A program made the position numbers and the translations under genes. Source: Mustelus asterias (lineage: Eukaryota). Taken from it: 64,000 nucleotides of DNA. The notes beneath the pieces are model-generated. The model saw only the letters and a program-made list of their open reading frames with translations. It did no database searches and was not told the origin of the DNA. The DNA is taken from NCBI RefSeq assembly GCF_964213995.1, contig NW_027590119.1, positions 186,001 through 250,000 of the forward strand. The letters run 5' to 3'. Numbering within the stretch: the stretch's first letter is position 1; each line of letters begins with the position of its first letter. Below, piece by piece: positions 87 through 62,084 of the stretch.

Positions 87-365
87 TTACAGGAATTCCT
101 GAAACACCTCACTTGTTAACAGAGTGTCGTTATCTGAAACAAGCCAATCTGGTAACCCAGGGCTTGTGAAAATTTGACAGAGCTTCTCTATTGTCTCAGG
201 AGCTGGAATATTACTCATGATCTGTGCTTCCAACCATTTTGAATGCACATTTACAACGACCAAACACATGTGCTTCATGAAAGGCTCCCCAAAGGCCACA
301 TTTAGTCTGGACCACGGCCTATCAGGCCACTCCCAAGGATGAAGTGGTAATGTACCCAGTGTGTT
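87..365 (-). mobile_element. Gypsy-type integrase fragment, inverted paralog of 55360-55635
   Basis: PLHPWEWP...LVVVNVHSKWLEA...LVSDND integrase-core motifs. Confidence 0.75.
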
Positions 366-1969
366 GTGCCTGATTCAATCGACAAACAGCTTATTGAGTT
401 AGGCCAGCGGGGAGAAGCCACAGGGGCTGACCATGTGCAACTCCACCCAACAAAGAATATCATCAATTCTTATCCAGTTACTCAGCCCATCCCGGCTGGA
501 CACAATCCAATCAGAATGGTGATAGATTACATACATTATAGGTTCAATAAAATTAGTATCTGGGCATTATGGGGCTTTGTGATCATCTCATGGACAGGTG
601 CCCTCATCATGATGCTTTCCAGACCCCCCTTGGGGGGGTCTTTCTTGGGCTTTCTTTGTACATAGACTCTCTTAGTTAGAAATGGGGCGGATTAAAAGTT
701 CTCAAATGGACGTCAGCACTCTTCCTTTGTTTTAATCTAATGACCACATGGTCTGGGAACATTTCTATTTAATACTCGCTCTTTTTAAACTCTTTTCTTC
801 AGTATCCAATTCCAGAATTTTCCTTTTCTTTGTGTTACTTGCATTAGGAATAAATCTTTGGACCTGACAGGAAGTTTAACCCAAGATCAATCCAACACAG
901 GATTGGTCAGAATCATTTCACACGTGTCAAATTTTAAATAACCATTACAAATTAAAACTCTCATTCTCACATGGGTGAATTGTATCCGGATTAAAATTCC
1001 CACATCTTTAGTAAAATATCCTGGAATCCTGTCTCTGGCCAGTAAATATGGCTCCAAGTTCATAACTTCTGAGCAAAAAAAGTTTTATTGATCACACTTC
1101 CTTTTTTAAAAATCTGTTCGATTTAAATCACAGACAGAAAACCTCAAAGTTTGAAGCGTTCAACCCACAAATATCATCCACACACAAACAGAGAAACATA
1201 GCATGTGCTTTACAACAACAATAACCAAAATTAATTACTTAAGCGTTCTTGTGATCCTGTTTTTAAACTTCCAAAAATGCCTTTAATTAAAGACTCAAGG
1301 TAAGGTTAATTCTCCAGAAAGATAAAACTTAACAAATGTAGCCCAAAACAATGATAAAACACATCTACAAACATCCACATAAAACAAACAAAACACACAG
1401 ATTCTCACAGCTCGTAAATTTCAGTCAATGAATCCTCAGCATTCTCTCTCGCAGCTATAGCTTCTTAAAGCGACAGAGCACTACAAGCTCACAACTCCTT
1501 GATTAAAATAAGATCCAAGATCCTTCATTATAACTTCACCTTTTTTAAGCCAACCTACAAGGACTGATTTTAGAGGCAACATCTTGTCTTTGGTGATTTA
1601 AAATCCCAAACACGTTACACCCAAACACCAGCAAAATCTTTGTTTTTTATCTGGGGATAAAACTCTCAGTTATTCCAAATTCCTCCAGGCTATGCTTAAT
1701 ATTTCCGCATTTAACTTATTCCCAGAAATCCTCCATTATAAACTAAAATAGACACATGAATTTCCGGGCAGTCACAGGAATATGGTCAAGATAGTCCAGT
1801 CCCACAATGCCTCACATTCAATCTGCAGTCCTTCAATTATAACAGAATATGTGGCTGTATATAGCTGCCATGGCCATGGTCAACCCAACCCCAAGGGTGC
1901 CTTCTTGAACTGCTGCAATGCCTAAGGTGTACGTACACCCACAGTGCTGTTAGGGAGGGACTTCCAGTT

Positions 1970-2597
1970 ACTGAGAGAGACAAGAGATGAAATTGCTGGG
2001 CCTCTAACAGAAATCTTTGTTTCTTCATTGGACACAGGTGAGGTCCCAGAGGATTGGAGAATAGCAAATGTGGTCCCGTTATTTAAGAAGGGTAGCAAGG
2101 ATAACCCTGGTAATTATAGGCCAGTGAGCTTGACGTCCGTGGTAGGGAAATTGTTGGAGAAGATTCTTAGAGATAGGATCTGTACACATTTAGAACTGAA
2201 TAATCTCATTAGCGATAGACAACATCGTTTTGTGCGAGGGAGGTCATGCCTCACAAATTTGGTTGAGTTTTTTGAGGAGGTGACAAAAATGACTGACGAG
2301 GGAAGGGCCGTGGATGTCGTCCACGTGGATTTTAGTAAAGCATTTGACAAGGTCCCTCATGGCAGGCTGGTGCAAAAGGTTAAATCTCACGGGAACTAGC
2401 GAGATGGGTACAGAACTGGCTTGGCCATAGAAGACAGAGGGTAGCAGTGGAGGGGTCTTTTTCTGATTGGAGCTCTGTGACTAGTGGTGTTCCGCAGGGC
2501 TCTGTACTGGGATCTCTGCTGTTTGTGATATATATAAATGATTTGGAAGAATATGTAGCTGGTCTGATTAGTAAGTTTGCGGATGACACAAAGATTG
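1970..2597 (+). mobile_element. CR1 LINE reverse transcriptase fragment
   Basis: [52 protein letters not shown]. Confidence 0.92.
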
Positions 2598-2789
2598 CTT
2601 GTTTTGGGTCAGAGATGCAAGGGGGGGAGTGGGAGGTGGGATGGAGTGGGAGTGGGGGGGAGATGTGAGGAAGAATATTCTGATGCAGCGAATGGTAATG
2701 ACCTGAAACTCGCTGTCTATGAGGGTGGAGGAAGTGGAGACAATAAACAATTAAAAAGGAAATTGGATGGGCATTTGGGATGTTCCAAA

Positions 2790-3920
2790 CAAAATGAAGA
2801 ACAAAGAAAATTACAGCACAGAAACAAGCTCTTTGGCCCTCCAAGCCTGTGGCAACCATTCTGCCCGTCTGAACTAAAACCCCCTCCCTTTCCGGGGACC
2901 ATATCCCTCTATTCCTATACTATTCATATATTTGTCAAGACACATCTTAAAAGTCACTATTGTATCTGCTTCCACTTCCTTCCCCGGCAACGAGTTCCAG
3001 GCACTCACCACTCTCCGTGTAAAAAACGTGCCTTGTACATCTCCTTTAAACCTCGCCCCTCGCACCTTAAACCTATGACCCTCGTAATTGACTCTTCCAC
3101 CCTGGGAAAAAGCCTCTGATTATCCACTCTGTCCATGCCCCTCATAATCTTGTAGACTTCTATCAGGTCGCCCCCCTCAATCTCCGTCGTTCCACTGAGA
3201 ACAAACCAAGTTTCTCCAACCTCTCCTCATAGCTAATGCCCTCCACACCAGGCAACATCCTGATTAATATTTTCCGTACCCTCTCCAAAGCCTCCACATC
3301 CTTCTGGTAGTGTGGTGACCAGAATTGAACACTAGATTCCAAGTGCGGTCTAACTAAGATTCTATAAAGCTGCAACATGACTTGCCAATTTTTAAACTCA
3401 ATGCCCCACCCAATGAAGGCGAGCGTGCCGTATGCCTTCTTGATTATCTTCTCCACCTGCATTGCCACTTTCAATGACCTGTGTACCTGTACACCCAGAT
3501 CCTTCTGCCTATGAATACTCCGAAGGGTTCTGCGATTTACTGTATATTTCCCATCTGTATTAGTTGGTCTAGTTGGGCACATGAGTGGCGCAGGCTTGGA
3601 GGGCCGAAGGGCTTGTTCCTGGGCTGTATTGTTCTTTGTATTAGACCTTCCAAAATGCATTACCTCACATTTTTCCGGATTAAACTTCATCTGCCATCTC
3701 TCTGCCCAAGTCTCCAACTGATCTATATCCTGCTGTATCCTCTGCCGGTCCCCATCGCTATCCGCAATTCCACCAACCTTTGTGTCGTCCACAAACTTAC
3801 CAATCAAACCAGTTACATTTTCCTCCAAATCATTTATATATATCACAAACAGCAAAAGTCCCAGCACTGATCCCTGAGGAATGTCACTTGTCACAGCCCT
3901 CCATTCAGAAATGTACCTTT
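2790..3920 (-). mobile_element. CR1 LINE 3' part, with a small opposite-strand CR1 tail inserted at ~3564-3636 (duplicated tgtattag)
   Basis: ORF 3163-3930 has PQGSVLG, FVDDTK, RPHLES..QFWSP; paralog at 48930-48945 lacks the small insert. Confidence 0.9.
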
Positions 3921-4181
3921 GCACTGCCAACCTCTGTTTTCTTCTGACTAAATATCTCTGAACGTCCTAACACCCTGTCACTCTGTGATCCTTGTGACAT
4001 TTGAAACCAGGTATTCGCAAAAAGACTCAAAGAGCATCAGCCCACTGGAGGCTGAGACCGGCCAGTCCAGCACAAAGAAACCCTCTGACCCTTCCCATTG
4101 ACCAACTGTGAGAATGAACAAAATGCAGTCCTGGATGTAATTGAGAGCAGAAACAATAACAGCAGAATCCAATCCCTGGAA

Positions 4182-4856
4182 TCACTCGTGAACTTGTTGG
4201 TGTCTCAGCAGCTGGGATGAAACTCTGAAACCCTTCCCACACTGAGAGCAGGTGAATGGCCTCTCCCCAGTGTGAACTCGCTGGTGTGTCTGCAGGCTGG
4301 ATAACTGAATGAATCCCTTCCCACACTGAGAGCAGGTGAACGGCCTCTCCCCAGTGTGAACTCGCTGGTGTCTCTGCAGGTCGGATAACTGAGTGAATCC
4401 CTTCCCACACTGAGAGCAGGTGAATGGTTTCTCCCCAGTGTGAACTTGCTGGTGTCTCCGCAGGTTAGATGAACAAGTGAATCCCTTCCCACACTGAGAG
4501 CAGGTGAATGGCCTCTCCCCAGTGTGAACTCGCTGGCGTGTCTGCAGGCTGGATAACTGAGTGAATCCCTTCCCATACTGAGAGCAGGTGAATGGTCTCT
4601 CCCCAGTGTGAACTCGCTGGTGTGTCTGCAGGTGGGATGACTGCGTGAATCCCTTCCCACATTGAGAGCAGGTGAATGGCCTCTCCCCACTGTGAACTCG
4701 CTCGTGTGTCTGCAAGCTGGATAAAGAAGTGAATCCCTTCTCACACTGAGAGCAGGTGAATAGTCTCTCCCCAGTGTGGCTGCGCCGATGAGCTGCCAGC
4801 AGAGATGGGGCTCTGTATCCCTTCCCACAGTCCGCACATTTCCATGGTTTCTCCAT
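4182..4856 (-). CDS. C2H2 zinc-finger protein A, 8 fingers (finger 4 defective)
   Basis: MEKPWKC start in accATGG context, 28-aa CxxC...HxxxH repeats with TGERPF linkers; finger 4 has C>Y and H>R. Confidence 0.85.
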
Positions 4857-5342
4857 GGTGCAGGTGTCCTTACCTCTCTCTTGGGTGGACAATTAGTTGA
4901 AGCTTCGTCCACACACAGAACAAGATTACAGTCTCTCCCCGCTGTGAATGGTGTGATATTTACTCAGACTGTGTAACTGGTTAAAGCTCTTTAGTCAGTG
5001 CATTGGAACACACTCACTCGAGTGTGGCAGAGTGTTGATGCTTTTTCACTCACACTGACATTTCAAATCTTTTCAAATCGACAGACTGGACAATCATTTC
5101 TCCTTCTGGATTCAAAGTCCGATGATATTGAGGTCCCAAGGAATATGATTCTGTCACGTCTAGACGTGACGTTTGAGATTTCAGCCTGTGATTCCTCTTT
5201 CAATATCCTGGAAAATAAGTTTCCAAAAGTCATCAGTGTCAGTACAGGATAGAAATTCAAAACAGACAATTTCTGTGAAACATTCTTTCCTCTCTCATTC
5301 CCCAAAAGCTGTAAATCTCCATCCCACACACTCTCTCCCCAT

Positions 5343-10914: not shown

Positions 10915-11218
10915 TAACTGTCCTGGCTGGAGACAATACACATCTCTTTAACCTGTGCTTAACCCTTTCTCCACTCACATTATCTGTACCTTTAAAGACT
11001 TGATTACCTGTAAAGACTCGCATTCCAACCATTATTTTGTAAATTGAGTTTGTGTCTTTATATGCCCTGTTTGTGAACAGAACTCCCACTTACGTGATGA
11101 AGGAGCAGTGCTCCAAAACCTAGTGGCTTGTGCTACCAAATAAACCTGTTGGACTTTAACCTGGTGTTGTGAGACTTCTTACTGTGTTTACCCCAGTCCA
11201 ACACCGGCATCTCCACAT
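10915..11218 (+). mobile_element. Penelope-like element fragment (family 1) with a mutated hammerhead motif at ~11085-11127
   Basis: Homologous to 52500-52805; gtgatgaaggagcagtgctccaaaacctagtgg. Confidence 0.75.
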
Positions 11219-21570: not shown

Positions 21571-21837
21571 TAATTATAAGAACTTAAGAACTAGGAGCAG
21601 GAGTAGGCCACTGAACCTCTCGAGCTGCTCTGCCATTCAATAAGATCATGGCTGATCTTTTCATGGACTTAGCTCCACTTACCCACCCGCTCACCATAAC
21701 CCTTAATTCATTTACTGTTTTTAAAAAATGATAGTGAAGGAATGATTCATTCTAATCGACAGCTTCAAATATACGTGAAAATCTTAACACGCAGTCTGCT
21801 GAAATATATATTATATCTCATGTGAATAAATATAACT

Positions 21838-22030
21838 GGGTTAAAGTCCAACAGCTTTGTTTGGTATCATGAACTTTCGGAGCACTGCTTCTTCATCAGG
21901 TGAGACACATGATGAAGGAGCAGCGCTCCGAAAACTGGTGATTCCAAATGAACCTGTTGGATTTTAATCTGGTGTGGTGAGACTTCTTACTGTGCACACC
22001 CCAGTCCAACACCAGCATCTCCACATCATG
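21838..22030. mobile_element. Short inverted pair of Penelope-like ends, each with a hammerhead motif
   Basis: ctttcggagcactgcttcttcatcaggtg (minus) next to tgatgaaggagcagcgctccgaaa (plus). Confidence 0.75.
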
Positions 22031-22559
22031 TATATAACTGGATGAAAAATGTGTGCTCTACCATACTCTATTTTTTAATTAGCAATACAGCAGCAGGGGA
22101 CATTATTTAGAAAGTGAGTGGTCATAATCTGCCTCTCTGCCTAAGACGATCGTGGAAGCAGTGGTAACTTATTTCAAAATGAAACAGGTGGGTATTTGAA
22201 GCAAATAAACTTCCACAAGTACAGTTATTTAGGGAGGAATGGAGCTGACTAGATTGCTCGATGAAGCATTGAGAAGGACTGGAATTGCTGAATCTTTTCG
22301 CAAGGGCCCTAAAGATATCAGTACTATATTAAAATGTAGAAATAACAGTAAACATTTTTACAGAACCAGAAATAATATGTCTAATATGTACCACAACAAC
22401 ACCAGATATATCTGTGTGCTATATTAATTTACTGTCCCCTTAAATGTCAGCCATCCACTGGGGAAACCACCCCTTTAATTGTGAACATTAGGAAAGAGAA
22501 CATCCCAGGAGCCAGACAAATAAATGTGTCAAGCTGAAAGAGCAAAGGATGTCAATGTC

Positions 22560-36739: not shown

Positions 36740-38750
36740 AAGAACAAACAAAGAACAAAGAACAATACAGCACAGGAACAGGCCCTTCGGCCCTCCAAGC
36801 CCGCGCCGCTCCCCGGTCCAAACTAGACCATTCTTTTGTATCCCTCCATTCCCACTCCGTTCATATGGCTGTCTAGATAAGTCTTAAACGTTCCCAGTGT
36901 GTCCGCCTCCACCACCTTGCCTGGCAGTGCATTCCAGGCCCCCACCACCCTCTGTGTAAAATATGTCCTTCTGATATCTGTGTTAAACCTCCCCCCCTTC
37001 ACCTTGAACCTATGACCCCTCGTGAACGTCACCACCGACCTGGGGAAAAGCTTCCCACCGTTCACCCTATCTATGCCTTTCATAATTTTATACACCTCTA
37101 TTAAGTCTCCCCTCATCCTCCGTCTTTCCAGGGAGAACAACCCCAGTTTACCCAATCTCTCCTCATAACTAAGCCCCCCTCCATACCAGGCAACATCCTG
37201 GTAAACCTCCTCTGAACTCTCTCCAAAGCCTCCACGTCCTTCTGGTCGTGTGGCGACCAGAACTGGACGCAGTATTCCAAATGCGGCCGAACCAACGTTC
37301 TATACATCTGCAACATCAGACCCCAACTTTTATACTCTATGCCCCGTCCTATAAAGGCAAGCATGCCATATGCCTTCTTCACCACCTTCTCCACCTGTGA
37401 CGTCACCTTCAAGGATCTGTGGACTTGCACACCCAGGTCCCTCTGCATATCTACACCCTTTATGGTTCTGCCATTTATCGTATCGCTCCTCCCTACATTA
37501 TTTCTACCAAAATGCATCACTTCGCATTCATCAGGATTGAACTCCATCTGCCATTTCTTTGCCCAAATTTCCAGCCTATCTATATCCTTCTGTAGCTTCT
37601 GACAATGCTCCTCACTATCTGCAAGTCCTGCCAATTTTGTGTCATCCGCAAACTTACTGATCACCCCAGTTACACCTTCTTCCAGATCATTTATATAAAT
37701 CACAAACAGCAGAGGTCCCAACACAGAGCCCTGCGGAACACCACTAGTCACAGGCATCCAGCCGGAAAAAGACCCTTCCACTACCACCCTCTGTCTTCTG
37801 TGACCAAGCCAGTTCTCCACCCATCTAGCCACCTCCCCCTTTATCCCATGAGATCCAACCTTTTTCACCAGCCTACCATGAGGGACTTTTTCAAACGCTT
37901 TACTAAAGTCCATATAGACGACATCCACGGCCCTTCCCTCGTCAACCATTCTGGTCACTTCTTCAAAAAACTCCACCAGGTTAGTGAGGCATGACCTCCC
38001 TCTCACAAAACCATGCTGACTATCGTTAATGAGTTTATTCCTTTCTAAATGCGCATACATCCTATCTCTAAGAATCTTCTCCAACAACTTCCCTACCACG
38101 GACTTCAAGCTCACCGGCCTATAATTACCCGGGTTATCCTTCCTACCCTTCTTAAATAACGGGACCACATTAGCTATCCTCCAATCCTCTGGGACCTCAC
38201 CTGCGTCCAGTGACGAGACAAAGATTTGCGTCAGAGGCCCAGCGATTTCATCTCTCGTCTCCCTGAGCATCCTTGGATAGATTCCATCAGGCCCTGGGGA
38301 TTTGTCAGTCTTTATATTCTCTAACAAACCTAACACTTCCTCCTTTGTAATGGAAATTTTCTCCAACGGTTCAACACTCCCCTCCGAGACACTCCCAGTC
38401 AACACATCCCTCTCCTTTGTGAATACCGACGCATTCACTTAAGATCTCCCCTACTTCTTCGGGCTCCAAGCATAATTCCCCACTTTTGTCCCTGAGAGGT
38501 CCGATTTTTTCCGTGACAACCCTTTTGTTCCTAACGTATGAATAAAATGCCTTGGGGTTCTCCTTAATCCTGTCTGCCAAGAACTTTTCGTGACCCTTTT
38601 GCTCTTCTAATTCCCCGTTTGAGTTCTTTCCTACTTTCTTTGTACTCCTCCAGAGCTCCCTCCGTTTTTAGCTGCCTGGACAGAACATACGCCTCTCTTT
38701 TCTTTTTGACCAGTCCCTCAATTTCCCTGGTTATCCACGGTTCTCGAATC
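36740..38750 (-). mobile_element. Young 5'-truncated CR1 LINE with a 441-aa RT reading frame (37113-38438)
   Basis: Full RT motif set ([35 protein letters not shown]); frameshifts at both ends; ttctttg tail. Confidence 0.95.
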
Positions 38751-42350: not shown

Positions 42351-43661
42351 TCAGTCCTGCATGGGGTGAGCAGCAACAGCAGAATCCAACCCCTGCAGTG
42401 ACTTGTGAACTTGCTGGTGTCTCAGCAGATTGGCTGACCGAGCAAATCTCTTCCCACATACGGAGCAGGTGAACGATCTCTCTCCTGTGTGAACCTGCTG
42501 GTGTCTCAGCAGGTGGGATGACTGAGTGAACCTTTTCCCACACATGGAGCAGGTGAATGATCTCTCTCCAGTGTGAATTTGCTGGTGTCTCAGCAGGTCC
42601 TTAGAGCTTTTAAAGCTTTTCTCACACTCAGAACATTTAAAAGGTCTCTGATCGGTGTGGACCAGTTGATGTGCAATGAGCTGGGGTGGCTGAGTGAATC
42701 GTTTCCCACATGTGGAGCAAGTGAAGGGTTTCTCCCCAGTGTGAATTCGCTCGTGTATCAGGAGGTGGGGTGAATCAGTGAATCCCTTCCCACACACACA
42801 GCAAATGAATGGCTTCTCCCCGGTGTGAACTCGCTGGTGTCTCAGACGGCGGGATGAATGGGTGAATCCCATCCCACACACCGAGCAGGTGAACGGTTTC
42901 TCCCCAGTGTGAACTCGCTGGTGTGTCACCAAATCCTGTTTACTTTTAAAGCTCTTCTCACAGGCAGAACACTGAAATGGTCTCTTATCAGAGTGAACTC
43001 GCTGGTGTGTTTGCAGCTGGGATAAACGTCCGAATCTCCTCTCACACACGGAGCAGGTGAATGGCTTCTCCCCAGTGTGAGTGCGCTGATGGACTTGTAA
43101 ATCATTTTTACTTTTAAATCTCTTCTCACAGTCAGAACATTGAAATGGTCTCCGATCAGTGTGAACAAGTTGGTGTGTCAGAAGGTGGGATGACTGAGTG
43201 AATCCCTTCCCACACACTGAGCAGGTGAACGGTCTCACCGCCATGTGAGTGCGCTGGTGTCTCAGGAGGTCCTTTGTGCTTTTAAAGCTTTTCTCACAAT
43301 CAGAACACTGAAACAGTCTCTGATCGGAGTGAACCTGCCGGTGAATCAGGAGGCTTGATAAAGCATGACATCCCCTCCCACATTCGAGGCAGGCGAATGG
43401 CCTCTCACCAGTGTGAACACGCCGGTGTGTATAGAGGCTGGATGAGTAAGCAAATCCTTTCCCACACTCAGAGCAGGTGAACGGCCTCTCTCCAGTGTGA
43501 ATGCGACGATGAATATCCAATTCGGACGGGTAATTGAATCTCCTCCCACAGTCCCCACATTTCAATGGTTTCTCTGTGGAGCGGGTATCCTCGTGTGACT
43601 CCAGGTTGGATGATGAGTTGAAGCCTCGTGCACACAGAATATGTGTCGGGTCACTACTCAC
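42351..43661 (-). CDS. C2H2 zinc-finger protein H, 14 fingers; true start unknown
   Basis: 436-aa open frame; family start Met replaced by Thr and family stop TGA replaced by TCA. Confidence 0.8.
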   Translation of the reverse strand: MSSDPTHILCARGFNSSSNLESHEDTRSTEKPLKCGDCGRRFNYPSELDIHRRIHTGERPFTCSECGKGFAYSSSLYTHRRVHTGERPFACLECGRGCHALSSLLIHRQVHSDQRLFQCSDCEKSFKSTKDLLRHQRTHMAVRPFTCSVCGKGFTQSSHLLTHQLVHTDRRPFQCSDCEKRFKSKNDLQVHQRTHTGEKPFTCSVCERRFGRLSQLQTHQRVHSDKRPFQCSACEKSFKSKQDLVTHQRVHTGEKPFTCSVCGMGFTHSSRRLRHQRVHTGEKPFICCVCGKGFTDSPHLLIHERIHTGEKPFTCSTCGKRFTQPPQLIAHQLVHTDQRPFKCSECEKSFKSSKDLLRHQQIHTGERSFTCSMCGKRFTQSSHLLRHQQVHTGERSFTCSVCGKRFARSANLLRHQQVHKSLQGLDSAVAAHPMQD

Positions 43662-44164
43662 TGAGAATGATGTGATTGTTTTTCAGACTTGTTAAACCAC
43701 TTTCCACATTCAGCACATTGGAAACTCTCAGGTGTGTGTGTGTGTGTCGGTGCTTTTTCAGTCACACTGATGTTTGAAATCTTTGCCCGCAGACAGAATG
43801 AACATTTCTCCTTCTGGAGACAAAGGCTGACGATATTCAGTTTCTGATGAATCAAATCACTGAAACAGATCTTGATGTGAAGTTTGGTTTGAGTTTCACA
43901 TCTGTAAATTCTCCTTCATAATACCCTGCAAAAACAGTTTACAAATACCATCACTGTCAGTGCAGGATAGAAATTCTGAACAGACAATTCATAGTTTCTC
44001 TGGAACATATTTTCCTCTCTTGTTCCCCCAAATCTATAAATCCCCGTCCCACACACTCTCCCTCCTCCCCTGGGCTGAAATCCAAACCCATCTCAACATC
44101 TCCACCATTTCTTCCCTCCACTCCCAGTTTTCTTCCTCCCTCTCCTCTGTCTGGGTTCAGTTCT

Positions 44165-44449
44165 TGATGTGGAAATCTCACTAACTGTCCTGGCTGGAGA
44201 CAGTACACATCTCTTTAACCTGTGCTTAACCCTCTCTCCACTCACATTGTCTGTACCTTTAAGACTTGATTGCCTGTAAAGACTCACATTCCAACCATTA
44301 TCTTGTAAATTGAGTTTGTGTCAATATATATGCCCCGTTTATGAACACAAGTCCGACTCACCTGATGAAGGAGCAGTGATCCGAAAGCGAGTGGCTTTTG
44401 CTACCAAATAAACCTGTTGGTCTTTAACCTGGCGTTGTGAGACTTCTTA
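44165..44449 (+). mobile_element. Penelope-like insert (family 1) with hammerhead motif and 14-bp flanking duplication
   Basis: ctgggttcagttct at 44151-44164 and 44450-44463; cctgatgaaggagcagtgatccgaaagc at ~44361. Confidence 0.8.
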
Positions 44450-44819
44450 CTGGGTTCAGTTCTCCAGCTGCTGTCTGCAGACTGACAATAAAACCAATGG
44501 CTCTTATTGGGGGTGTTGGGGCCTCCAGCGGGTGTTTGTGAATCCTCCCCGCCCACCTCCCAGGGTTTCCTTCCTTCCCAGAGATCAGAGTCCTCATTGA
44601 TTTGAGGCCAAAGTGTAACCTCTTATTTATTGTCCCCCTCCCCCATCCTCTGATGTGAACCATCCTCCAGTGGCTGAGCCAGGATGGGGCCGTTAACCTG
44701 GGCCTGTTCCCGGGAGGGAGGGAGGGAGAAGCCCCGCAGCTGCAAACCAGGGAGCTGACAATGATTCTGAAGGGTTTGCGGATCCACAAAGTGTTTCCAA
44801 ATCCTCCCAGCCACCGCCT

Positions 44820-46288: not shown

Positions 46289-48394
46289 ATGGCGAAACCA
46301 TAGAAATGTGCGGACTGTGGGAAGGGATACGGAACCCCATCAGAGCTGGAAGCTCATCGGCGCAGCCACACTGGGGAGAGGCCGTTCATCTGCTCTCAAT
46401 GTGGGAAGGGATTCAGTCAGTTATCCAACCTGCAGAGACACCAGCGAGTTCACACTGGGGAGAGGCCGTTCACCTGCTCTCAGTGTGGGGAGGGATTCAC
46501 TCAGTCATCCCACCTGCAGAGACACCAGCGAGTTCACACTGGGGAAAGGCCCTTCACCTGCTCTCAGTGTGGGAAGGGATTCACTCGGATATCCAGCCTG
46601 CAGAGACACCAGCGAGTTCACACTGGAGAGAGGCCGTTCACTTGCTCTCAGTGTGAGAAGGAATTCACTTATTTATCCACCCTGCAGTCACACCAGCGAG
46701 TTCACACTGGGGAGAGGCCGTTCACCTGCTCTCAGTGTGGGGAGGGATTCACTCGGTCATCCCACCTGCAGTCACACCAGCGAGTTCACACTGGAGAGAG
46801 GCCGTTCACCTGTTCTCAATGTGGGGAGGGATTCACTCAGTCATCCCACCTGCAGAGACACCAGCGAGTTCACACTGGAGAGAGGCCGTTCACTTGCTCT
46901 CAGTGTGAGAAGGAATTCAATAATTTATCCAGCCTGCAGATACACCAGCGAGTTCACACTGGGGAGAGGCCGTTCACCTGTTCTCAGTGTGGGGATGGAT
47001 TCACTCAGTCATCCCACCTGCAGAGACACCAGCGAGTTCACACTGGAGAGAGGCCATTTACCTGCTCTCAGTGTGGTAAGAGGTTCACTCAGTTATCCAG
47101 CCTGCAGAGACACCAGCGAGCTCACACTGGGGAGAGGCCATTCACCTGCTCTCAGTGTGGGAAGGGATTCATTCAGTTATCCGAGCTGCGGACACACCAG
47201 CGAGTTCATACAGGGGAGAGGCCATTCACTTGCTCTCAGTGTGGGGAGGGATTCACTCGGTCATCCAGCCTGCTGACACACCAGCGAATTCACACTGGGG
47301 AGAGGCCGTTCACCTGCTCACAGTGTGGGAAGGGATTCAATCAGTTATCCAACCTGCAGGCACACCAGCGAGTTCACACTGGGGAGAGGCCGTTCACCTG
47401 CTCTCAGTGTGGGAAGGGATTCACTCGGTCATCCGACCTGCGGGCACACCAGCGAGTTCACACTGGGGAGAAGCCCCCATTCACCTGCTCTCAGTGTGGG
47501 AAGGGATTCACTCGGTCATCCCACCTGCAGAGACATCAGCGAGTTCACACTGGGGAGAGACCGTTCACCTGCTCTCAATGTGAGAAGGGATTCACTCTGT
47601 CATCCCACTTGCAGACACATCAGCGAGTTCACACTGGAGAGAGACCATTCACCTGCTCTCAGTGTGCGAAGGGATTCATTCAGTTATCCAGCCTGCAGAG
47701 ACACCAGCGAGTTCACACTGGAGAGAGGCCATTCACCTGCTCTCAGTGTGGGAAGGGATTCACTCAGTTATCCAGCCTGCAGACACACCAGCGAGTTCAC
47801 ACTGGGGAAAGGCCGTTCACCTGCTCTCAGTGTGGGAAGGGATTCACTCGGTCATCCGACCTGCGGACACACCAGCGAGTTCACACTGGAGAGAGGCCGT
47901 TCACCTGCCCTCAGTGTGGGAAGGGATTCACTCGGTTATCCAGCCTGCAGACACACCAGCGAGTTCACACTGGGGAGAGACCATTCACCTGCTCTCAGTG
48001 TGGGAAGGGATTCACTCGGTCATCCGACCTGCGGACACACCAGCGGGTTCATACAGGGGAGAAACCATTCACCTGCTCTCAGTGTGGGCAGGGATTCACT
48101 CAGTCATCCAGCCTGCGGGCGCACCAGCGAGTCCACACAGGGGAGAGGCCGTTCACCTGCTCTCAGTGTGGGAAGGGATTCACTCAGCTATCCAACCTGC
48201 AAACACACCAGCGAGTGCACACGGGGGAGAGGCCGTTCACCTGCTCTCAGTGCGGGCAAGAATTCACTCAGTTATCCAACCTGCAGACGCACGAGCGAGT
48301 TCACACTGGGGAGAGGCCGTTCACCTGCTCTGTGTGTGGGAAGGGTTTCAGCGTTTCATCCCGGCTGCTGAGGCACCAGCAAGTTCACGAGTGA
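46289..48394 (+). pseudogene. 25-finger C2H2 ZNF I with a nonsense codon at position 5
   Basis: ATG GCG AAA CCA TAG (46301-46303), then an uninterrupted finger frame from 46304 to 48394. Confidence 0.82.
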
Positions 48395-49700: not shown

Positions 49701-51600
49701 TCTGTTTGGAACACCCCAAATACCCATCCAATTTCCTTTTTAATTGTTTATTGTCTCCACTTCCTCCACCCTCATAGACAGCGAGTTTCAGGTCATTACC
49801 ATTCGCTGCATCAGAATATTCTTCCTCACATCTCCCCCCTCAATTCCCCCCCCACCCCACTGCCCCCCCCAGCCCCCCACTCCCCCTCCCTTGCATCTCT
49901 AACCCAAAACAAGAAATCTGTGTCCCCCCTCGTCCTTGTCCCATCAGCTAATGGGAACAGCTTTTCTTTGTCCACCTTATCTAAACCTGTCAGAATCTTG
50001 TCCACCTCTATCAAATCTCCCCTCAACCTCCTTTGCTCCAAGGAAAACAACCCCAGCCTGACATTGACAATAAAGAACAAACTAACAGAATATGTTAATA
50101 CCTGAAATCAAATGGGAATGTTTAATTTCTGTTTTAAAGATATTGTGAATGTATTGTCCTGGACAATAAAGGAATTGGAATAACTCACCTTGGGTGTGGT
50201 TGAATGGAATATATCAATCTGATATCCACCAACAGTCCAGTGAAAGTCTGGAATGTGTAGCTGGAAGTCCCTTCCTAACAGCACTGTGGATGTACGTGCA
50301 CCTCAGGCATTGCAGCAGTTCATGAAGGCACCCTTGGGGTTGGGGTTGACCATGGCCAAGGCAGCTACATACAGCCACATATTCTGTTATAATTGAAGGA
50401 CTGCAGATTGAATGTGAGGCATTGTGGGACTGGACTATCTTGACCACATTCCTGTGACTGCCCGGAAACTCATGTGTCTATTTTAAAGCACAAAGAACAA
50501 TACAGCACAGGAACAGGCCCTTCGGCCCTCCAAGCCTGCACCGATCATGTGTTCCTAACGAGACCATCCGTTTGTATCCCTCTATTCCCAGTCTGTTCAT
50601 GTGGTTATCTAGATAAGTCTTAAATGATCCTAGCGTGTCAGCCTCAACCACCTTGCTTGGTAGTGCATTCCAGGCCCCCACCACCCTCTGTGTAAAATAC
50701 GTCCCCCGCATATCTGTATTGAACCTTGTCCCCCTTATCTTGAACTTGTGACCCCTTGTGTTTGTTCTTTCTGACCTGGGAAAAAGCTTCCAACTGTTCA
50801 CCCTATCTATGCCCTTCATAATTTTATAAACTTCTATTAGGTCGCCCCTCAACCTCTGTTTTTCCAGGGAGAACAACCCTAGTTTACTCAATCTCTCCTC
50901 ATAGCGAATACCCTCCATACCAGGCAACATCCTGGTAAACCTTTTCTGCACTCTCTCCAAAGCCTCCACGTCCTTCTGGTAGTGTGGTGACCAGAACTGG
51001 ACGCAGTATTCCAAATGTGGCCGAACCAACGTTCTATATAACTGCAACATCATATGCCAACTTTTATACTCTATGCCCCTTCCAATAAAAGCAAGCATGC
51101 CATATGCCTTCTTCACCACCCTTTCCACCTGTGTTGCCACCTTTAAGGTTCTGTGGACTTGCACATCCAGATCCTTCTGCGTGTCTATACTCCTGATGGT
51201 TCTGCCATTTATTGTATAGCTCCCCCCCCTGCATTAGATCTACCAAAATGCATCACTTCGCATTTATCTGGATTAAATTCCATCTGCCATTTCTCCGCCC
51301 AATTTTCCAGCCTATCTATATCCTGCTGTATTCTCTGACAATGTTCATCACTATCCGCAACTCCAGCAATCTTTGTGTCATCCGCAAACTTACTAGTCAG
51401 ACCAGCTACATCTTCTTCCAAATCATTTATATATATCACAAACAGCAGAGGTCCCAGTACAGAGCCCTGCGGAACACCACTAGTCACAGACCTCCAATCA
51501 GAAAAAGACCCCTCCGCTGCTACCCTCTGTCTTCTATGGCCAAGTTAGAAGTTTAACAACACCAGGTTAAAGTCCAACAGGTTTATTTGGGAGCAAAAAG

Positions 51601-51645
51601 CCACACAAGCTTTCGGAGCTCTTAGCCCCTTCTTCAGGTGAGTGG
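51601..51645 (-). ncRNA. Minimal type I hammerhead ribozyme motif
   Basis: Exact reverse complement of 52667-52711. Confidence 0.75.
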
Positions 51646-52666
51646 GAATTCTGTTCACAAACAGAGCTTATAAAGACACAGACTCAATTTACTTGAATAA
51701 TGGTTGGAATGCGAATACTTACAACTAATCAAGTCTTTAAGAAACGAAACAATGTGAGTGGAGAGAGCATCAAGACAGGCTAAAAAGATGTGTATTGTCT
51801 CCAGACAAGACAGCCAGTGAAACTCTGCAGGTCCACGCAACTGTGGGAGTTACAAATAGTGTGACATGAACCCAATATCCCGGTTGAGGCCGTCCTCGTG
51901 TGTGCGGAACTTGGCTATCAGTTTCTGCTCAGCGACTCTGCGCTGTTGTGTGTCGCGAAGGCCGCCTTGGAGAACGCTTACCCGAATATCAGAGGCCGAA
52001 TGCCCGTGACCGCTGAAGTGCTCCCCAACAGGAAGAGAACAGTCTTGCCTGGTGATTGTCGAGCGGTGTTCATTCATCCGTTGTCGCAGCATCTGCATAG
52101 TTTCCCCAATGTACCATGCCTCGGGACATCCTTTCTTGCAGCGTATCAGGTAGACAACGTCTACAACCTGATGCAAGAAAGGATGTCCCGAGGCATGGTA
52201 CATTGGGGAAACTATGCAGACGCTGCGACAACGGATGAATGAACACCGCTCGACAGTCACCAGGCAAGACTGTTCTCTTCCTGTTGGGGAGCACTTCAGC
52301 GGTCACGGGCATTCGGCCTCTGATATTCGGGTAAGCGTTCTCCAAGGCGGCCTTCGCGACACACGACAGCGCAGAGTCGCTGAGCAGAAACTGATAGCCA
52401 AGTTCCGCACACACGCGGACGGCCTCAACCGGGATATTGGGTTCATGTCACACTATTTGTAACTCCCACAGTTGCGTGGACCTGCAGAGTTTCACTGGCT
52501 GTCTTGTCTGGAGACAATACACATCTTTTTAGCCTGTCTTGATGCTCTCTCCACTCACATTGTTTCGTTTCTTAAAGACTTGATTAGTTGTAAGTATTCG
52601 CATTCCAACCATTATTCATGTAAATTGAGTCTGTGTCTTTATATGCTCTGTTTGTGAACAGAATTC

Positions 52667-52711
52667 CCACTCACCTGAAGAAGGGGCTAAGAGCTCCGAA
52701 AGCTTGTGTGG
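52667..52711 (+). ncRNA. Minimal type I hammerhead ribozyme motif
   Basis: CCACUCAC-CUGAAGA-A-GGGGC(UAAGA)GCUCC-GAAA-GC-UU-GUGUGG: intact core, stems I and II pair, palindromic AAGCUU stem III. Confidence 0.75.
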
Positions 52712-55359
52712 CTTTTGCTCCCAAATAAACCTGTTGGACTTTAACCTGGTGTTGTTAAACTTCTTACTGTGTTTACCCCAGTCCAACGCCGGCATCTCCA
52801 CATCATGACTTCTATGGCCAAACCAGTTCTGTACCCATCTAGCTAGCTCACCTTTGATCCTGTGAGATTTAACCTTTTGCACCAGCCTGCCATGAGGGAC
52901 CTTGTCAAATGCTTTACTAAAATCAATGTAGACGACATCCACGGCCCTTCCCTCGTCAGTCATTTTTGTCACCTCCTCAAAAAACTCAACCAAATTTGTG
53001 AGGCATGACCTCCCTCGCACAAAACCATGTTGTCTATCGCTAATGAGATTATTCAGTTCTAAATGTGTACAGATCCTATCTCTAAGAATCTTCGCCAACA
53101 ATTTCCCTACCACGGACGTCAAGCTCACTGGCCTATAATTACCCGGGTTATCCTTGCTACCCTTCTTAAATAACGGGACCACATTTGCTATTCTCCAATC
53201 CTCTGGGACCTCACCTGTGTCCAATGAAGAAACAAAGATTTTTGTGAGAGGCCCAGCAATTTCACCTCTTGTCTCTCTCAGTAACTGGAAGTCCCTTCCT
53301 AACAGCACTGTGGGTGTACGTACACCTCAAACATTGCAGCAGTTCAAGAAGGCACCCTTGGGGTTCACCATGGCCAAGGCAGCTATATACAGCAACATAT
53401 TCTGTTATAATTGAATGACTGCAGATTGAATGTGAGGCATTGTGGGACTGGACTATCTTGACCACATTCCTGTGACTGCCCGGAAACTCATGTGTCTATT
53501 TTAGTTTATAATTGAGGATTTCTGGGAATAAGTTAAATGCGGAAATATTAAGCATAGCCAGGAGGAATTTGGAATAACTGAGAATTTTATCCCCAGATAA
53601 AGAACAAAGATTTTGCCGGTGTTTGGGTGTAACGTGTTTGGGATTTTAAATCAACAAAGATGTTATAGAACATAGAACAGTACAGCACAGAACAGACCCA
53701 ATAATGGAATATATCAATCTGATATCCACCTACAGTCTAGTGAAAGTCTGGAATATGTAGCTGGAAGTCCCTTCCTCACAGCATTGTGGGTGTACGTATA
53801 CCTCAGGTATTGCAGCAGTTCAAGAAGGCACCCTTGGGGTTGGGGTTGACCATGGCCAAGGCAGCTACATACAGCCACATATTCTGTTATAATTGAAGGA
53901 CTGCAGATTGAATGTGAGGCATTGTGGGACTGGACTATCTTGACCATATTCCTGTGACTGCCCAAAAACTCATGTGTCTATTTTAGATTAAAATTGAGGA
54001 TTTCTGGGAATAAATTAAATGCGGAAATATTAACCATAGCCTGGAGGAATTTGGAATAACTGAGAATTTTATCCCCAGATAAAGAACAAAGATTTTGTCG
54101 GTGTTTGGGTGTAACGTGTTTGGGATTTTAAATCAACAAAGATGTTGCCTCTAAAATCAGTCCTTGTAAGTTGGCTTAAAAAAGGTTAAGTTATAATAAA
54201 GGATTTTGCATCTTATTTTAATCAAGGAGTTGTGAGCTTGTAGTGCTCTGTCGCTTTAAGGAGCTATAGCTGTGAGAGAGAATGCTGAGGATTCATTGTT
54301 TGAAATTTACGATCTGTGAGAATGTGTGTGTTTTGTTTGTTTTATGTGGATGTTTGTAGATGTGTTTTATCATTGTTTTGGACTACATTTGTTAAGGTTT
54401 ATCTTTCTGGTGGATTAACCTGATCTTCAATCTTTAATTAAAGGCATTTTTGGAAGTTTAAAAACAGGATCACAAGAGCGCTTAAGTAATTAATTTTGGT
54501 TATTGTTGTTGTAAAGCACATGTTAAGTTTCTCTGTTTGTGTGTGGATGATATTTGTGGGTTGAACGCTTCAAGCTTTGAGGTTTTCTGTCTGTGATTTA
54601 AATCAAACAGATTTTTAAAAAAGGAAGTGTGATCAATGAAACTTTTTTTGTTCAGAAGTTATGAACCTGGAGCCATATTTACTGGCCAGAGACAGGATTC
54701 CAGGATATTTTACAAAACATGTGGGAATTTTAATCCGGATACAATTCACCCATGTGAGAATGAGAGTTTTAATTTGTAATGGTTATTTAAAATTTGACAC
54801 ATGTGAAATGATTCTGACCAATCCTGTGTTGGATTGATCTTGGGTTAAACTTCCTGTCAGGTCCAAAAATTTATTCCTGACGCAAGTAACACAAAGAAAA
54901 GGAAAATTCTGGAATTGGATACTAAAGAAAAGAGTTTAAAAAGAGAGAGTATTAAATAGAAATGTTCCCAGACCATGTGGTGATTAGATTAAAACAAAGG
55001 AAGAGTGCTGACGTCCATTTGAGAACTTTTAATCCACCCCATTTCTATCTAAGGGAGTCTATGTACAAAGAAAGCCCAAGAAAGACCCCCCCAAGGGGGG
55101 GTCTGGAAAGCATCATGATGGGGGCATCTGTCCATGAGATGATCACAAAGCCCCATAATGCCCAGATACTAATTTTATTGAACCTATAATGTATGTAATC
55201 TATCACCATTCTGATTGGATTGTGTCCAGCCGGGATGGGCTGAGTAACTGGATAAGAATTGATGATATTCTGTGTTGGGTGGAGTTGCACATGGTCAGCC
55301 CCTGTGGCTTCTCCCCGCTGGCATAACTCAATAAACTGTTTGTCGATTGAATCAGGCAC

Positions 55360-58620: not shown

Positions 58621-59295
58621 TCACTTGTGAACTTGCTGGTGTGCCCGCAGGCTGGATGACTGAGTGAATCCCTTCCCACACACACAGCAAGTGAATGGTC
58701 TCTCCCCGGTGTGAACTCGCTGGTGTATCCGCAGGTGGGATGATGTTCTAAATCTCTTTGAGCAGTGAGAGCAGCTGAACGGTCTCTCCCCAGTGTGAGT
58801 GCGCTGGTGAATCATCAGTTCCCGAGAGCTTTTGAAATCACGCCCACAGTCAGAGCATTTAAACGGTCTCTCATTGGTGTGAGTGAGATTGTGGTTCTGC
58901 AGGCTGGATGACTGAGTGAATCCCTTCCCACACACAGAGCAGGTGAACGGTCTCTCCCCAGTGTGAACTCGCTGGTGTATCCGCAGGTGGGATGATGCTC
59001 TAAATTTCTTTGCGCAGTGAGAGCAGCTGAACGGTCTCTCCCCAGTGTGAATGCGCTGGTGGATAATCAGTTCCCGAGAGCTTTTGAAACCACTCCCACA
59101 GTCAGAGCATTTAAAGGGTCTCTCCTGGCTGTGAGTGACTTTGTGTTTTGACAGGTTAGATAACTGCGTAAATCCTTTCCCACACACAGAGCAGATGAAT
59201 GGCCTCTCCCCGGTGTGACTGCGTCGATGAATTTCCAGTTTACAGGGGGCTCTGTATCTCTTCCCACAGTCCCCACATTTCCACGGTTTCTCCAT
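58621..59295 (-). CDS. C2H2 zinc-finger protein J, 8 fingers
   Basis: Intact MEKPWKC...HQQVHK*, with full family 3'UTR (58375-58620). Confidence 0.9.
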
Positions 59296-60098
59296 GGTGC
59301 GGGTGTCCTTGTGACTCTCCAGGTTAAACAATCAGTTAAATCTCACACAGAACACGGGTACAGTCTCTCCCCGCTGTGAATGCTGCGATGTACTTTCAGG
59401 CTGTGTAACTGGTTAAAGCTCTTTCCACACTCAGTGCAGTGGAACACTCTCACTCGGGTGTATCTGTGCCTTGGTGCTTTTCCAGTCACATTGATATTAA
59501 AGGCCTGTTGACGCAGACAGAACAGGGAAACATTTCTCCTTCCAGATTCAAAGGCCGATAATATTCAGGTCCGATGAATTGAGTGAGGGTGTCAGATGCT
59601 GATGTGACGTTTGTTTCAATCCTCTGTCTGTCAATCCTCACCTTCTCATATCCTGTAAACGAGTTTGGAAAATTCATCAATGTCAGCACAGGATAGAAAT
59701 TCAGAACAGACTATTCTAGTTTCTATGGAACATTCTTTCCTCTCTCATTCCCGAAAAGCTGTAAATCTCCATTCCACACACTCTCCCTCCATTCTCACTC
59801 TGCTGTATCTAATATTCACCCTCCCAATTCTCCTGAAGGTGCTGATTGAGGCTGATTGACAGATCCATGCTCACTGCTTCCTCTCCTGGACACAGGGAGC
59901 TGAAAATCTCCCTGCAGGCTGCCAGACAGATATTTGTCTAAATTACTGGGCTAACAATGTGTGGAACATACCGACTGGATTCACTTCCTTTCCCTTCAGT
60001 TGCTGCAAGTTCCCAATTTCCCCCAGAATGAGAAAAGAAATGGAAAGGGGAGGAAAAGAAAGTGTTTCACTCACAGATGTTGGCCTCTTTTAAGGCTT

Positions 60099-60170
60099 TG
60101 CATTGGCCAGGAATACGAACCCAGGCCTCCCGCGGGGCAGGTGAGAATTCTACCACTGAACCACCAATAC
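60099..60170 (-). pseudogene. tRNA-Gly(GCC) pseudogene
   Basis: GTATTGGTGGTTCAGTGGTAGAATTCTCACCTGCCCCGCGGGAGGCCTGGGTTCGTATTCCTGGCCAATGCA; matches vertebrate tRNA-Gly-GCC, with an anticodon-stem mismatch, A37>C and a T-loop insertion. Confidence 0.85.
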
Positions 60171-60800: not shown

Positions 60801-60946
60801 TGTCTGAATGCGGAAGTGGACAATGAGCTTGTTCAGCTGCCCATTCCTGCCCAGCAAAGCTGCTGCTGCTTCTCTCTCTCTGAATGAAGATTGAGCTTCA
60901 GACACAGACTCAACCTTCCTCCTGTCTCTAATATCTGTGAGAGTGT

Positions 60947-61019
60947 GGGTCAGTGGCGCAATGGATAACGCGTCTGACTACGGATCAGAAGATTCCAGGT
61001 TCAACTCCTGGCTGGCTCG
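60947..61019 (+). tRNA. tRNA-Arg-ACG: tRNA-Arg(ACG)
   Basis: 73 nt GGGTCAGTGGCGCAATGGATAACGCGTCTGACTACGGATCAGAAGATTCCAGGTTCAACTCCTGGCTGGCTCG; two tolerated changes from the vertebrate sequence as I recall it; TTTT at 61051-61054. Confidence 0.93.
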
Positions 61020-62084
61020 ATGTCAATTTGAAAAATAGTTTGTGAGCTCCTTTTGACCTAAAAGAGGCCAACATCTGTGAGTAAAACACTTTCTTTGCTC
61101 CGCTTTTGCGTTTCTTTTGCATTCTGGGGGAAATTGGGGACTTGTTGAATTTTTAACTTCCAGGTCACCACTCGCTGCCTAAATAAAAATCCTCCTCACA
61201 TTCTTCATGTATCTGTAACCAGGTAACACAGTGCATTACACACATCATCAGTCCGCTCATTGATGTCCAAATGTAACACTTTAACGTGGCTGTCAGCTTG
61301 AAGATTAATCATGGATCATTTGCACTTCCACAACCCTCTGAGGCAGCGGGTTCCAGGTAATGACCTTTCTGCACCAAAATAAAATTCTTCCCCACATCCT
61401 TCCCTTTCTCCCAATCCAGTTATCCGGTCCCGCATATGGCACAGATTTTAATTTCTAGCGTGTAGGCCGGTCGTTACACGTAGATTTTCAGATCTCTGTG
61501 TCCAATATAGAAAGTGGTCAGCATGGATCCGTTAATCAGCCTGAATCAGCACCTTCAATAGACTTGGGAGGTTGTATGCTCAGGAGAGCACAGTGAGAAT
61601 TGAGGGAGAGTGTGTGGGATGGAGATTGACAGATTTTGGAGAATGAGAGAGGAAAGAATGTTCCATAGAAACTAGAATTGTCTGTTCTGAATTTCTATCC
61701 TGTACTGACAATGATGTCTGTTGTAAATTCCTTTCATAGATATCAGGAGGTGAGGATTTACAGACAGAAATTTCAAACTAAACATCACATCAAGATTTGA
61801 CAGAGCCATTCGATTTATTGGGACCTGAATATCATCGACCTTTGAATCTAGAAAAGCAATGTTTGTCTGATCTGTTTGCTTAAGGAGATTTTAAACATCA
61901 GTGTGACTGGAACACACCCGAGTGAGAGTGTTCCAGTCCACTGATAGTGGAAAGAGCTTTAACCAGTTACACAGGCTGAAACAACATTGCACCGTTTACA
62001 GTGAAGAGAGACCGTACACGTGTTCTGTGTGGACAAGGATTCAACTGATCATCAAACCTGGAGAGCCACAAGGACACCCGCATC

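Follow-up and report, generated by a model that had tools for sequence, protein, structure and literature searches.

Introduction

An inverted, 5′-truncated copy and a one-sided tail of 30–40 bp are described as typical of Penelope-like elements (PLEs) (Craig 2021, PMC8557442), and inverted pseudo-long terminal repeats (pLTRs), duplications of 8–10 bp, an empty allele and palindromes at the junctions have also been reported for them (Arkhipova 2013, PMC3846280). Pen2a_Av, for example, has inverted pLTRs, a 9-bp target-site duplication (TSD) and a 31-bp tail (PMC3846280). How PLE inverted repeats and tails are made is still called unresolved in these accounts (PMC8557442, PMC3846280). Pairs of hammerhead motifs on opposite strands, 100–700 bp apart, have been described in Schistosoma (Cervera and De la Pena 2014, PMC4209133), and PAc, a Poseidon element of Anolis, cuts both strands and extends each of them, has two start sites that border its tail and is predicted to be a dimer (Frangieh 2024, PMC11167929). 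The vertebrate PLE clades are given as Neptune and Poseidon, and the target preferences reported for PLEs are AT-rich DNA, microsatellites or rDNA. Here we analyse a PLE insertion at 51531–52821 of a 64,000-nucleotide stretch of the shark Mustelus asterias (contig NW_027590119.1, positions 186,001 to 250,000; the whole stretch is hereafter the window, numbered from its first letter). The architecture is already known, and this focal element is an ordinary, well-preserved example of the published PLE layout; its interest lies mostly in the evidence held in its junctions and in a lead on target-site choice. Taken as a whole, the locus is probably the product of a single, dead-on-arrival PLE integration that left the family's usual head-to-head inverted structure, and the junctions of three insertions in the window speak for both target ends having been used, one with the tail and the other without.

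Structure and identity of the element

The element consists of two 5′-truncated PLE copies of ~600 bp each, arranged head to head:

51544–52161, minus strand (sense): left arm, a 5′-truncated PLE 3′ end, collinear with the family to 52161 and ending at a tail-less boundary
52159–52808, plus strand (sense): right arm, a 5′-truncated PLE 3′ end that includes the tail
52150–52171, no strand: head-to-head junction, with a hairpin of 6 bp and a 3-nt loop (52150–52164), after which 3 nt are inserted and 5 nt deleted by comparison with the left arm
52769–52808, plus strand: tail of 40 nt (41 with the shared base, the start being 52768 or 52769), on the right arm only
52492–52808, plus strand: pLTR-like 3′ segment, common to the family copies at 10918 and 44178, whose similarity starts at 52492–52499
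51850–52158, minus strand: C-terminal fragment of a GIY-YIG endonuclease, left; 102 aa and a stop, without reverse transcriptase (RT) and without a start
52172–52462, plus strand: C-terminal fragment of a GIY-YIG endonuclease, right; 96 aa and a stop

The inverted arm pair, 51596–52140 and 52172–52716, is 99% identical over 545 nt, and a second inverted stretch, 51543–51598 and 52713–52768, is 98% identical over 56 nt. The near-identical palindrome arms of ~600 bp seen in the initial annotation of this DNA are thus confirmed. Their equality is not, the tail being present on the right arm only, and the central hairpin it had placed at 52150–52164 is there without the clean axis, both the insertion and the deletion of the right arm lying no more than 12 nt from the hairpin. 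Arm against arm, 7 substitutions and 1 indel are found over 596 aligned nt. Judged against homologues, two derived coding changes fall in each arm and four non-coding ones in the left arm; this asymmetry (6 left, 2 right) is not significant (p = 0.29). Three derived left-arm changes (51544–51690) are T-to-A on the sense strand of the element, and protein matches in the antisense frame gave no answer as to whether they are family variants. The end of the tail (52805–52807) reads ATG in an open frame and is possibly the start codon of the next open reading frame (ORF) in a tandem. The doubled nuclease codons (51751–52500) have the highest observed/expected CpG ratio among the stretches listed in the window (0.80–0.87; 22 CpG in 291 nt).

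On its protein and repeat features, the element is almost certainly an insertion of a shark endonuclease-positive (EN+) PLE, putatively of the Neptune/Nematis type. The GIY-YIG region claimed for each arm is confirmed; the Pfam GIY-YIG profile matches the two arms with E values of 5e-4 and 9e-3, both under the gathering score. A search with the left-arm frame matched 52 proteins out of 89 candidates, the top ones being records from Mustelus, Scyliorhinus, Heptranchias and Chiloscyllium with 77–91% identity. The nearest named homologues are shark PLE proteins at 91% identity. The Penelope-like identity and the inverted termini first proposed are both supported. In P0006 (82%) and P0032, an RVT_1 domain lies N-terminal to the GIY-YIG domain. 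The CCHH motif of EN+ PLEs is present, reading C-KKG-C between VYLI and WYIG and followed by conserved His residues, as are the other hallmarks of that group, namely a pLTR with a hammerhead, a one-sided tail of 40–41 nt, an inverted truncated copy and a TSD. As to the clade, nine of ten aligned homologues carry a CX4CxxC linker, of the CX2–5CxxC kind that marks Neptune/Nematis, before GIY-YIG, in disagreement with the linker-less definition of strict Penelope/Poseidon, while the linker region is truncated away in the focal copy. Insertion bias towards microsatellites, a Neptune tendency, was not observed, none of the three readable target sites being a microsatellite. Since neither arm has an RT or a start, the focal copy is unable to move by itself.

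Two other classes were considered. A DNA transposon or miniature inverted-repeat transposable element was rejected, as the two ends do not match and each arm is the 3′ end of a retroelement; a non-LTR retrozyme was rejected on account of the single hammerhead per strand and the lack of a direct same-strand tandem. Several shark gene models (P0001, P0011, P0013, P0015, P0018 and P0048) include nuclease pieces, by exonisation or annotation error; the models concerned are XRCC5, a PPP1R12A-like protein, FAM210B, septin 5a, USP8 and a PYRIN-domain protein. No stray copies turned up in either of two exact-motif scans that covered bacterial and archaeal genomes.

Target duplication, empty sites and relative age

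50485–53281, minus strand: host CR1/L3-type long interspersed nuclear element (LINE), its RT frame split by the insertion
51531–51543, plus strand: TSD, left copy, 13 exact bases (51531–51544 if 14 with one mismatch)
52809–52821, plus strand: TSD, right copy, matching as a 13-mer
2421–2433, minus strand: empty site in an inverted segmental paralogue
37795–37808, plus strand: second empty site, in an older copy (86%) of the same LINE

The host LINE, which we take from its protein sequence to be of the CR1/L3 type, is interrupted within its RT: positions 5–106 of the RVT_1 profile match on one side of the insertion and positions 111–193 on the other, and the flanks rejoin into one RVT_1 domain. 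The 13-mer occurs in the window at 51531 and 52809 and once more, on the opposite strand, at 2421; a word of that length was common to 3 of 1500 random window pairs. The base that follows the left 13-mer is also found in both empty CR1 copies, so the duplication probably spans 14 bp, one position having changed since. The paralogue with the first empty site pairs 89–5300 with 55636–45857 at 89–97% identity. Thus the 13-bp duplication and the single copy at ~2421–2433 stand as first noted, and together with the second empty site, the one-sided tail and the rejoining RT frame they establish the claim of a real insertion over that of a read artefact.

The arms diverge by 1.2% (95% interval 0.5–2.4%), the adjacent paralogous flanks by 2.8% (1.7–4.4%) and the distal flanks by 3.9%, within an overall range of 2.8–5.1% for paralogous flanks. 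Judged by these sequence divergences, the insertion is younger than the segmental duplication, with overlapping intervals for the adjacent flanks, and "young" therefore applies only relative to that local duplication. The inverted segmental duplication is a block of LINE and zinc-finger (ZNF) sequence, whose right copy has ~1.4 kb extra (49923–51365). A local direct duplication of ~390 bp (53281–53664 and 53757–54146, 93%) has a related piece at 50203–50485.

Other family copies and a proposed integration mechanism

44151–44463, plus strand: family copy flanked by a 14-bp duplication; 12 nt of tail stand inverted as a stub (44165–44176), and the arm of ~280 nt ends tail-less
21830–22041, no strand: family copy with a 10-bp duplication, a head-to-head mini-palindrome (66 versus 125 nt) with the tail on the right only
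10918–11218, plus strand: solo pLTR-like segment with tail, for which no duplication was found

Recurrence of the family at 10915, 21838 and 44165 had been proposed, and copies do lie at 10918, 21839 and 44178; paralogous empty sites were found for none of these three. Including the focal element, three of the four family copies are inverted, asymmetric and TSD-flanked, with duplications of 13–14, 14 and 10 bp (null 3, 3 and 16 of 1500, respectively). The focal copy and copy 44165 have one tailed and one tail-less end each. The stub of copy 44165 is identical to the end of the focal tail in 11 of its 12 nt, and tail sequence is absent from its long arm. In the copy at 21830–22041 both 5′ ends fall at the start of the hammerhead, and its AT-rich duplication does not fit the target motif described below.

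How was this product made? We lean towards priming at both target ends with a snap-back of one cDNA. The GIY-YIG nuclease of the element, as the presumed enzyme, would nick the two strands of the CR1 LINE 13–14 nt apart, leaving the duplication and the empty site that are seen. Both 3′-OH ends would then be used, the top-strand end joining the tail-less boundary over a microhomology of 1–2 nt and the bottom-strand end joining the tail end; the junctions themselves are visible, and taking them as two RT start sites leans on the in vitro work on PAc. The top-strand cDNA would stop inside the nuclease codons, fold back at a 2-bp hairpin that the family sequence already contains, and be extended, with a slip at this step that may have left the 3-nt insertion and 5-nt deletion as its scar. 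For the rest of the right arm, either fold-back copying might have continued until it met the cDNA primed at the tail, or a second round of reverse transcription might have ended at almost the same point. Repair would finally fix the product, after which each arm would mutate independently.

The centre of the palindrome carries most of this argument. There the left arm follows the family reading N-V-V-Y to 52161, including the loop and two stem pairs, and the scar is on the right arm. Since the tail-less left arm is the one on which the loop and the initial two stem pairs run collinear with the family, the arm that folded back would not have served as template for the tail; the snapped-back strand being the tail-less one, the tail would have come from a second start. 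Likewise, the stub of copy 44165 is tail that its long arm lacks, so it is not a fold-back copy of that arm and two starts are needed. By analogy, the two-start reading fits the behaviour of PAc.

Several points weigh against two-ended priming with snap-back. The 5′ ends of both arms nearly coincide in the focal copy and in copy 21838, which is predicted by fold-back and not by independent reverse transcription; these coinciding ends favour DNA fold-back for most of the right arm. At the junction, the state of the family was deduced from protein sequences. The left end of copy 21838 lies ~20 nt inside the tail-less boundary, copy 10915 shows neither a duplication nor an inverted piece, and the three left-arm T-to-A changes could mean a second, different template RNA. 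Moreover, the PAc data come from another clade, Poseidon (PMC11167929).

Alternatively, a single priming event might suffice, in which one cDNA begun at the tail end folds back and copies itself and the nuclease resolves the hairpin at the tail boundary, as in the published models of self-priming (PMC3846280) and EN-mediated resolution (PMC8557442). Such a course would account for the coincident 5′ ends and the junction hairpin, a coincidence repeated in copy 21838, and would suit a tail that opens with target half-sites 7 nt apart in all three tailed copies. We nevertheless consider it unlikely, because the loop is collinear with the tail-less arm and the scar sits on the tailed one, and because the tail stub of copy 44165 requires a second start.

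A possible target-site preference

The rebuilt targets of the focal copy and copy 44165 have 7 bases flush with one cut and 4 with the other in common, and 18 of 200,000 random pairs were as good; as the boundaries were chosen by eye and three pairs were possible, we discount this chance to roughly 1e-3. In two unnamed ORFs from other CR1 lineages, P0056 and P0061, the tail is joined to the same RT codon, with 25 and 16 of 29 residues, respectively, identical to the focal flank, and P0063 has a third CR1-RT junction at a different position. We put forward, as an evenly balanced proposition, that the nuclease of this shark PLE lineage is sequence-selective, probably dimeric, and nicks 5′ of (A/C)CAG on each strand 12–14 bp apart (CTG[T/G]-N12–14-[A/C]CAG), so that it would hit one CR1 RT codon repeatedly and prime both nicks at the tail ends. 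The tail itself opens with CTGT-N7-CCAG in all three tailed copies (52767–52781; near 11185 and 21990), the 7-nt spacer varying, and these half-sites 7 nt apart may be a self-recognition signal.

The motif was first noted with N14, before the 26 matches were collected. From these, 2 already known, 3 without a usable junction (P0058, P0074 and P0078) and 2 with flanks of fewer than 8 residues were set aside, leaving 19 held-out ORFs. Back-translation with CTG(T/G) at N14 fits 2 of the 19, which is not significant (482 of 2000 shuffles as high), nor is the count at N13–14 (4 of 19; 150 of 2000 shuffles). At N12–14, a spacing window widened after the flanks were known, 10 of 19 are compatible against 2.6 expected (0 of 2000 shuffles). 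When the best window of width 3 is allowed at any position, this count is attained by 3 of 2000 shuffles and the weighted score by 65 of 2000. CCTG and CTGT came out on top in a ranking of all 256 4-mers.

Counting against the motif, copies 21838 and 10915, P0057 and 9 of the 19 ORFs do not fit. P0057 is the single match obtained when the pLTR end, read in sense, was used as query, and its flank was found by hand inspection to misfit. Within the window, N14 is no commoner than other spacings (12 sites versus 7–12). Compatibility is no proof of the DNA letters, one half-site only is visible in the ORFs, and the junctions are uncertain by 1–2 nt. As a separate observation, five residues are identical in P0055 and P0076 and stand equally far ahead of the tail junction, which may be a second recurrent site. 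A literature search, at the level of listings and outside Repbase and Dfam, turned up no report of a spaced palindromic PLE target. If the motif holds genome-wide, it would give in vitro studies of a vertebrate PLE nuclease a defined substrate, and would make this an example of a retroelement that interrupts another one again and again at one fixed codon.

Hammerhead motifs and read-through RNA

51601–51645, minus strand: minimal type I hammerhead, left copy, 45 nt, identical to the right copy
52667–52711, plus strand: minimal type I hammerhead, right copy; core 52675–81 and 52698–701, helix II 52683–88/52692–97, U16.1 at 52704, U17 at 52705

When both strands of the window were scanned for minimal hammerheads, these two motifs were the only matches; both had been picked out correctly by the initial annotation, including the predicted cut after 52705, which is U17. 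They show the CUGANGA and GAAA boxes, the extra base 9/10.1, the pair G10.1-C11.1, a long helix II, a palindromic 15.2–16.2 and a short helix I. The assignment to the minimal type I class is upheld by these sequence traits (PMC4209133), below the Rfam gathering score: at that score the window yields no hammerhead and only two tRNAs. Helix II exceeds that of the older copies by one pair and contains a G-U where three of four older motifs have A-U; each of the older family motifs has lost a core, helix or palindrome base.

The cleavage triplet, CUU, obeys the NUH rule; PMC11875169 yielded nothing on CUU triplets. Position 17 is alignable in 13 of 28 junction ORFs, of which 7 imply C17, 4 U17 and none G17, with 2 mutated; A17 would be a stop there and so invisible. 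U17 therefore occurs as a variant within the family, and the NUH rule appears to be maintained. Cleavage is slower with U17 than with C17.

Alone, the hammerhead motif is no more stable than shuffled sequences (z −0.85). A read-through RNA of either strand is predicted to fold into a hairpin of ~600 bp with a minimum free energy of about −1240 kcal/mol and 95% of its bases paired. In both full-length strands and in prefixes that end as the ribozyme emerges, all 45 nt of the sense hammerhead are predicted to pair with the antisense copy, the duplex reaching −95.1 kcal/mol versus −12.6 for the lone motif; predicted folds free it only in RNAs that start within the pLTR (52460, 52600). In a head-to-head pair, transcription always reaches the antisense copy before the sense hammerhead, and as the two motifs are on opposite strands, the cis dimer of tandem PLE repeats cannot form. 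Dimers of PLE hammerheads are reportedly the subject of work by Lunse et al. (RNA Biol). The hammerheads here are predicted to be pLTR passengers, silenced by the hairpin in any read-through RNA. For comparison, minimal PLE hammerheads are described as inactive as monomers and of low activity as dimers (PMC4209133), and the PAc ribozyme as needing protein and being dispensable for insertion (PMC11167929).

Zinc-finger context and possible function

Ten C2H2 arrays make up 16% of the window. They extend from 4188 to 63675, with several divergent pairs around CpG-rich stretches, and in at least three arrays the fingers are in two frames; one open frame, 46304–48394, encodes 696 aa with 25 fingers. 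Copies 10915, 21838 and 44165 lie 0.75–3.0 kb 5′ of a ZNF array, near CpG-rich stretches (the copy at 44151–44463 sits between such a stretch and the array 42405–43559), and the focal element is 3′ of two convergent arrays, 46307–48388 (plus) and 58627–59438 (minus), ZNF gene structure being read from finger orientation and CpG content. The initial view that each of these three copies is upstream of or in an intron of a ZNF gene is thus right in its upstream part, and the focal copy does not share that position. The association is not significant, with P = 0.14 for at least three of four upstream and P = 0.05 for three of three when the focal copy is left out, and an array is no more than 3 kb away for 82% of the positions outside arrays. 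Targeting to ZNF genes was rejected, the proximity being as expected by chance in so ZNF-dense a window. Beyond the arrays, a tRNA-Arg(ACG) gene lies at 60946–61020 (plus) and a weak tRNA-Gly-like gene of 35 bits at 60099–60170 (minus).

The focal locus is very probably without function. It had been suggested that a transcript of either strand would form long double-stranded RNA with one sense ribozyme, the motifs acting as dimers. The double-stranded fold is what we also predict; a usable sense ribozyme is not, and action as a dimer within a focal transcript fails on the opposite strands of the motifs. A read-through transcript that is a biologically relevant source of double-stranded or small RNA, with an active ribozyme, and that affects the neighbouring ZNF genes seems improbable to us. 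It would draw on the near-perfect 600-bp hairpin and the intact hammerhead core, on the convergent arrays 3.1 kb and 5.8 kb off, which could read into the element, and on the PLE small RNAs reported in a rotifer (PMC3846280). On the other hand, the whole hammerhead is predicted to be sequestered, no cis dimer is possible and even dimers of minimal hammerheads cleave weakly (PMC4209133); poly(A)-like hexamers intervene on both sides, 4 separating the plus-strand ZNF array from the element and 12, counted on the minus strand, separating the element from the minus-strand array; and, as above, the ZNF proximity is not significant.

Unlikely alternatives: later duplication or artefact

One could also imagine a single insertion that was duplicated in inverted form at a later time, during replication or repair, or else two independent hits on the same site. 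The junction scar does resemble end-joining, and same-site insertion seems recurrent in the family. Both versions are nonetheless very unlikely, given that a single duplication frames both arms, that the left arm ends at the tail-less boundary of copy 44165 and that the layout recurs in three of the four copies. Palindromes are a known class of artefact. A fold-back read or assembly artefact, although PLE structures do trouble assemblies (PMC8557442), can practically be dismissed here in view of the duplication, the two empty sites, the one-sided tail, the flanks rejoining one RT frame and the 8 differences between the arms, some derived on one arm and some on the other.

Comparison with known systems

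Measured against non-LTR retrozymes (bioRxiv 10.64898/2026.07.22.740005), the element is alike as a PLE-related repeat with type I hammerheads and in its chondrichthyan occurrence; those retrozymes are described as non-coding direct tandems with at least two ribozymes on the same strand, whereas the focal element is inverted and coding. A literature search for hammerhead, shark and Penelope matched only via the word that describes the shape of the ribozyme. Like the minimal hammerheads of metazoan PLEs (PMC4209133), the focal motifs, as putative ribozymes, have both core boxes, the extra base 9/10.1, G10.1-C11.1, a long helix II and the palindromic 15.2–16.2. They differ in a helix I of 3 bp (6 across a 2-nt bulge), in U at position 17 and in the 1.0 kb between the pair.

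With respect to Neptune (or Nematis), nine of the ten aligned homologues carry the CX4CxxC linker; the linker lies outside the focal copy, and the focal targets are not microsatellites, the reported bias of Neptune. PAc (PMC11167929) is alike in having two 3′ boundaries around the tail, in using both target strands and in a pLTR hammerhead upstream of the tail. It belongs to a different clade and prefers AT-rich DNA (ATT), in contrast to the CTG(T/G)...(A/C)CAG sites found here. Compared with EN+ PLEs (PMC8557442, PMC3846280), the focal copy has no full-length ORF and no direct pLTR tandem, and both of its arms reach the nuclease codons; its TSD is 13–14 bp, against 8–10 bp in the rotifer cases described (PMC3846280). 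What it has in common with the EN+ elements described in those papers is the head-to-head truncated copy, the one-sided tail, the TSD, the junction palindrome, a retrotransposon as target and an empty site in a related segment.

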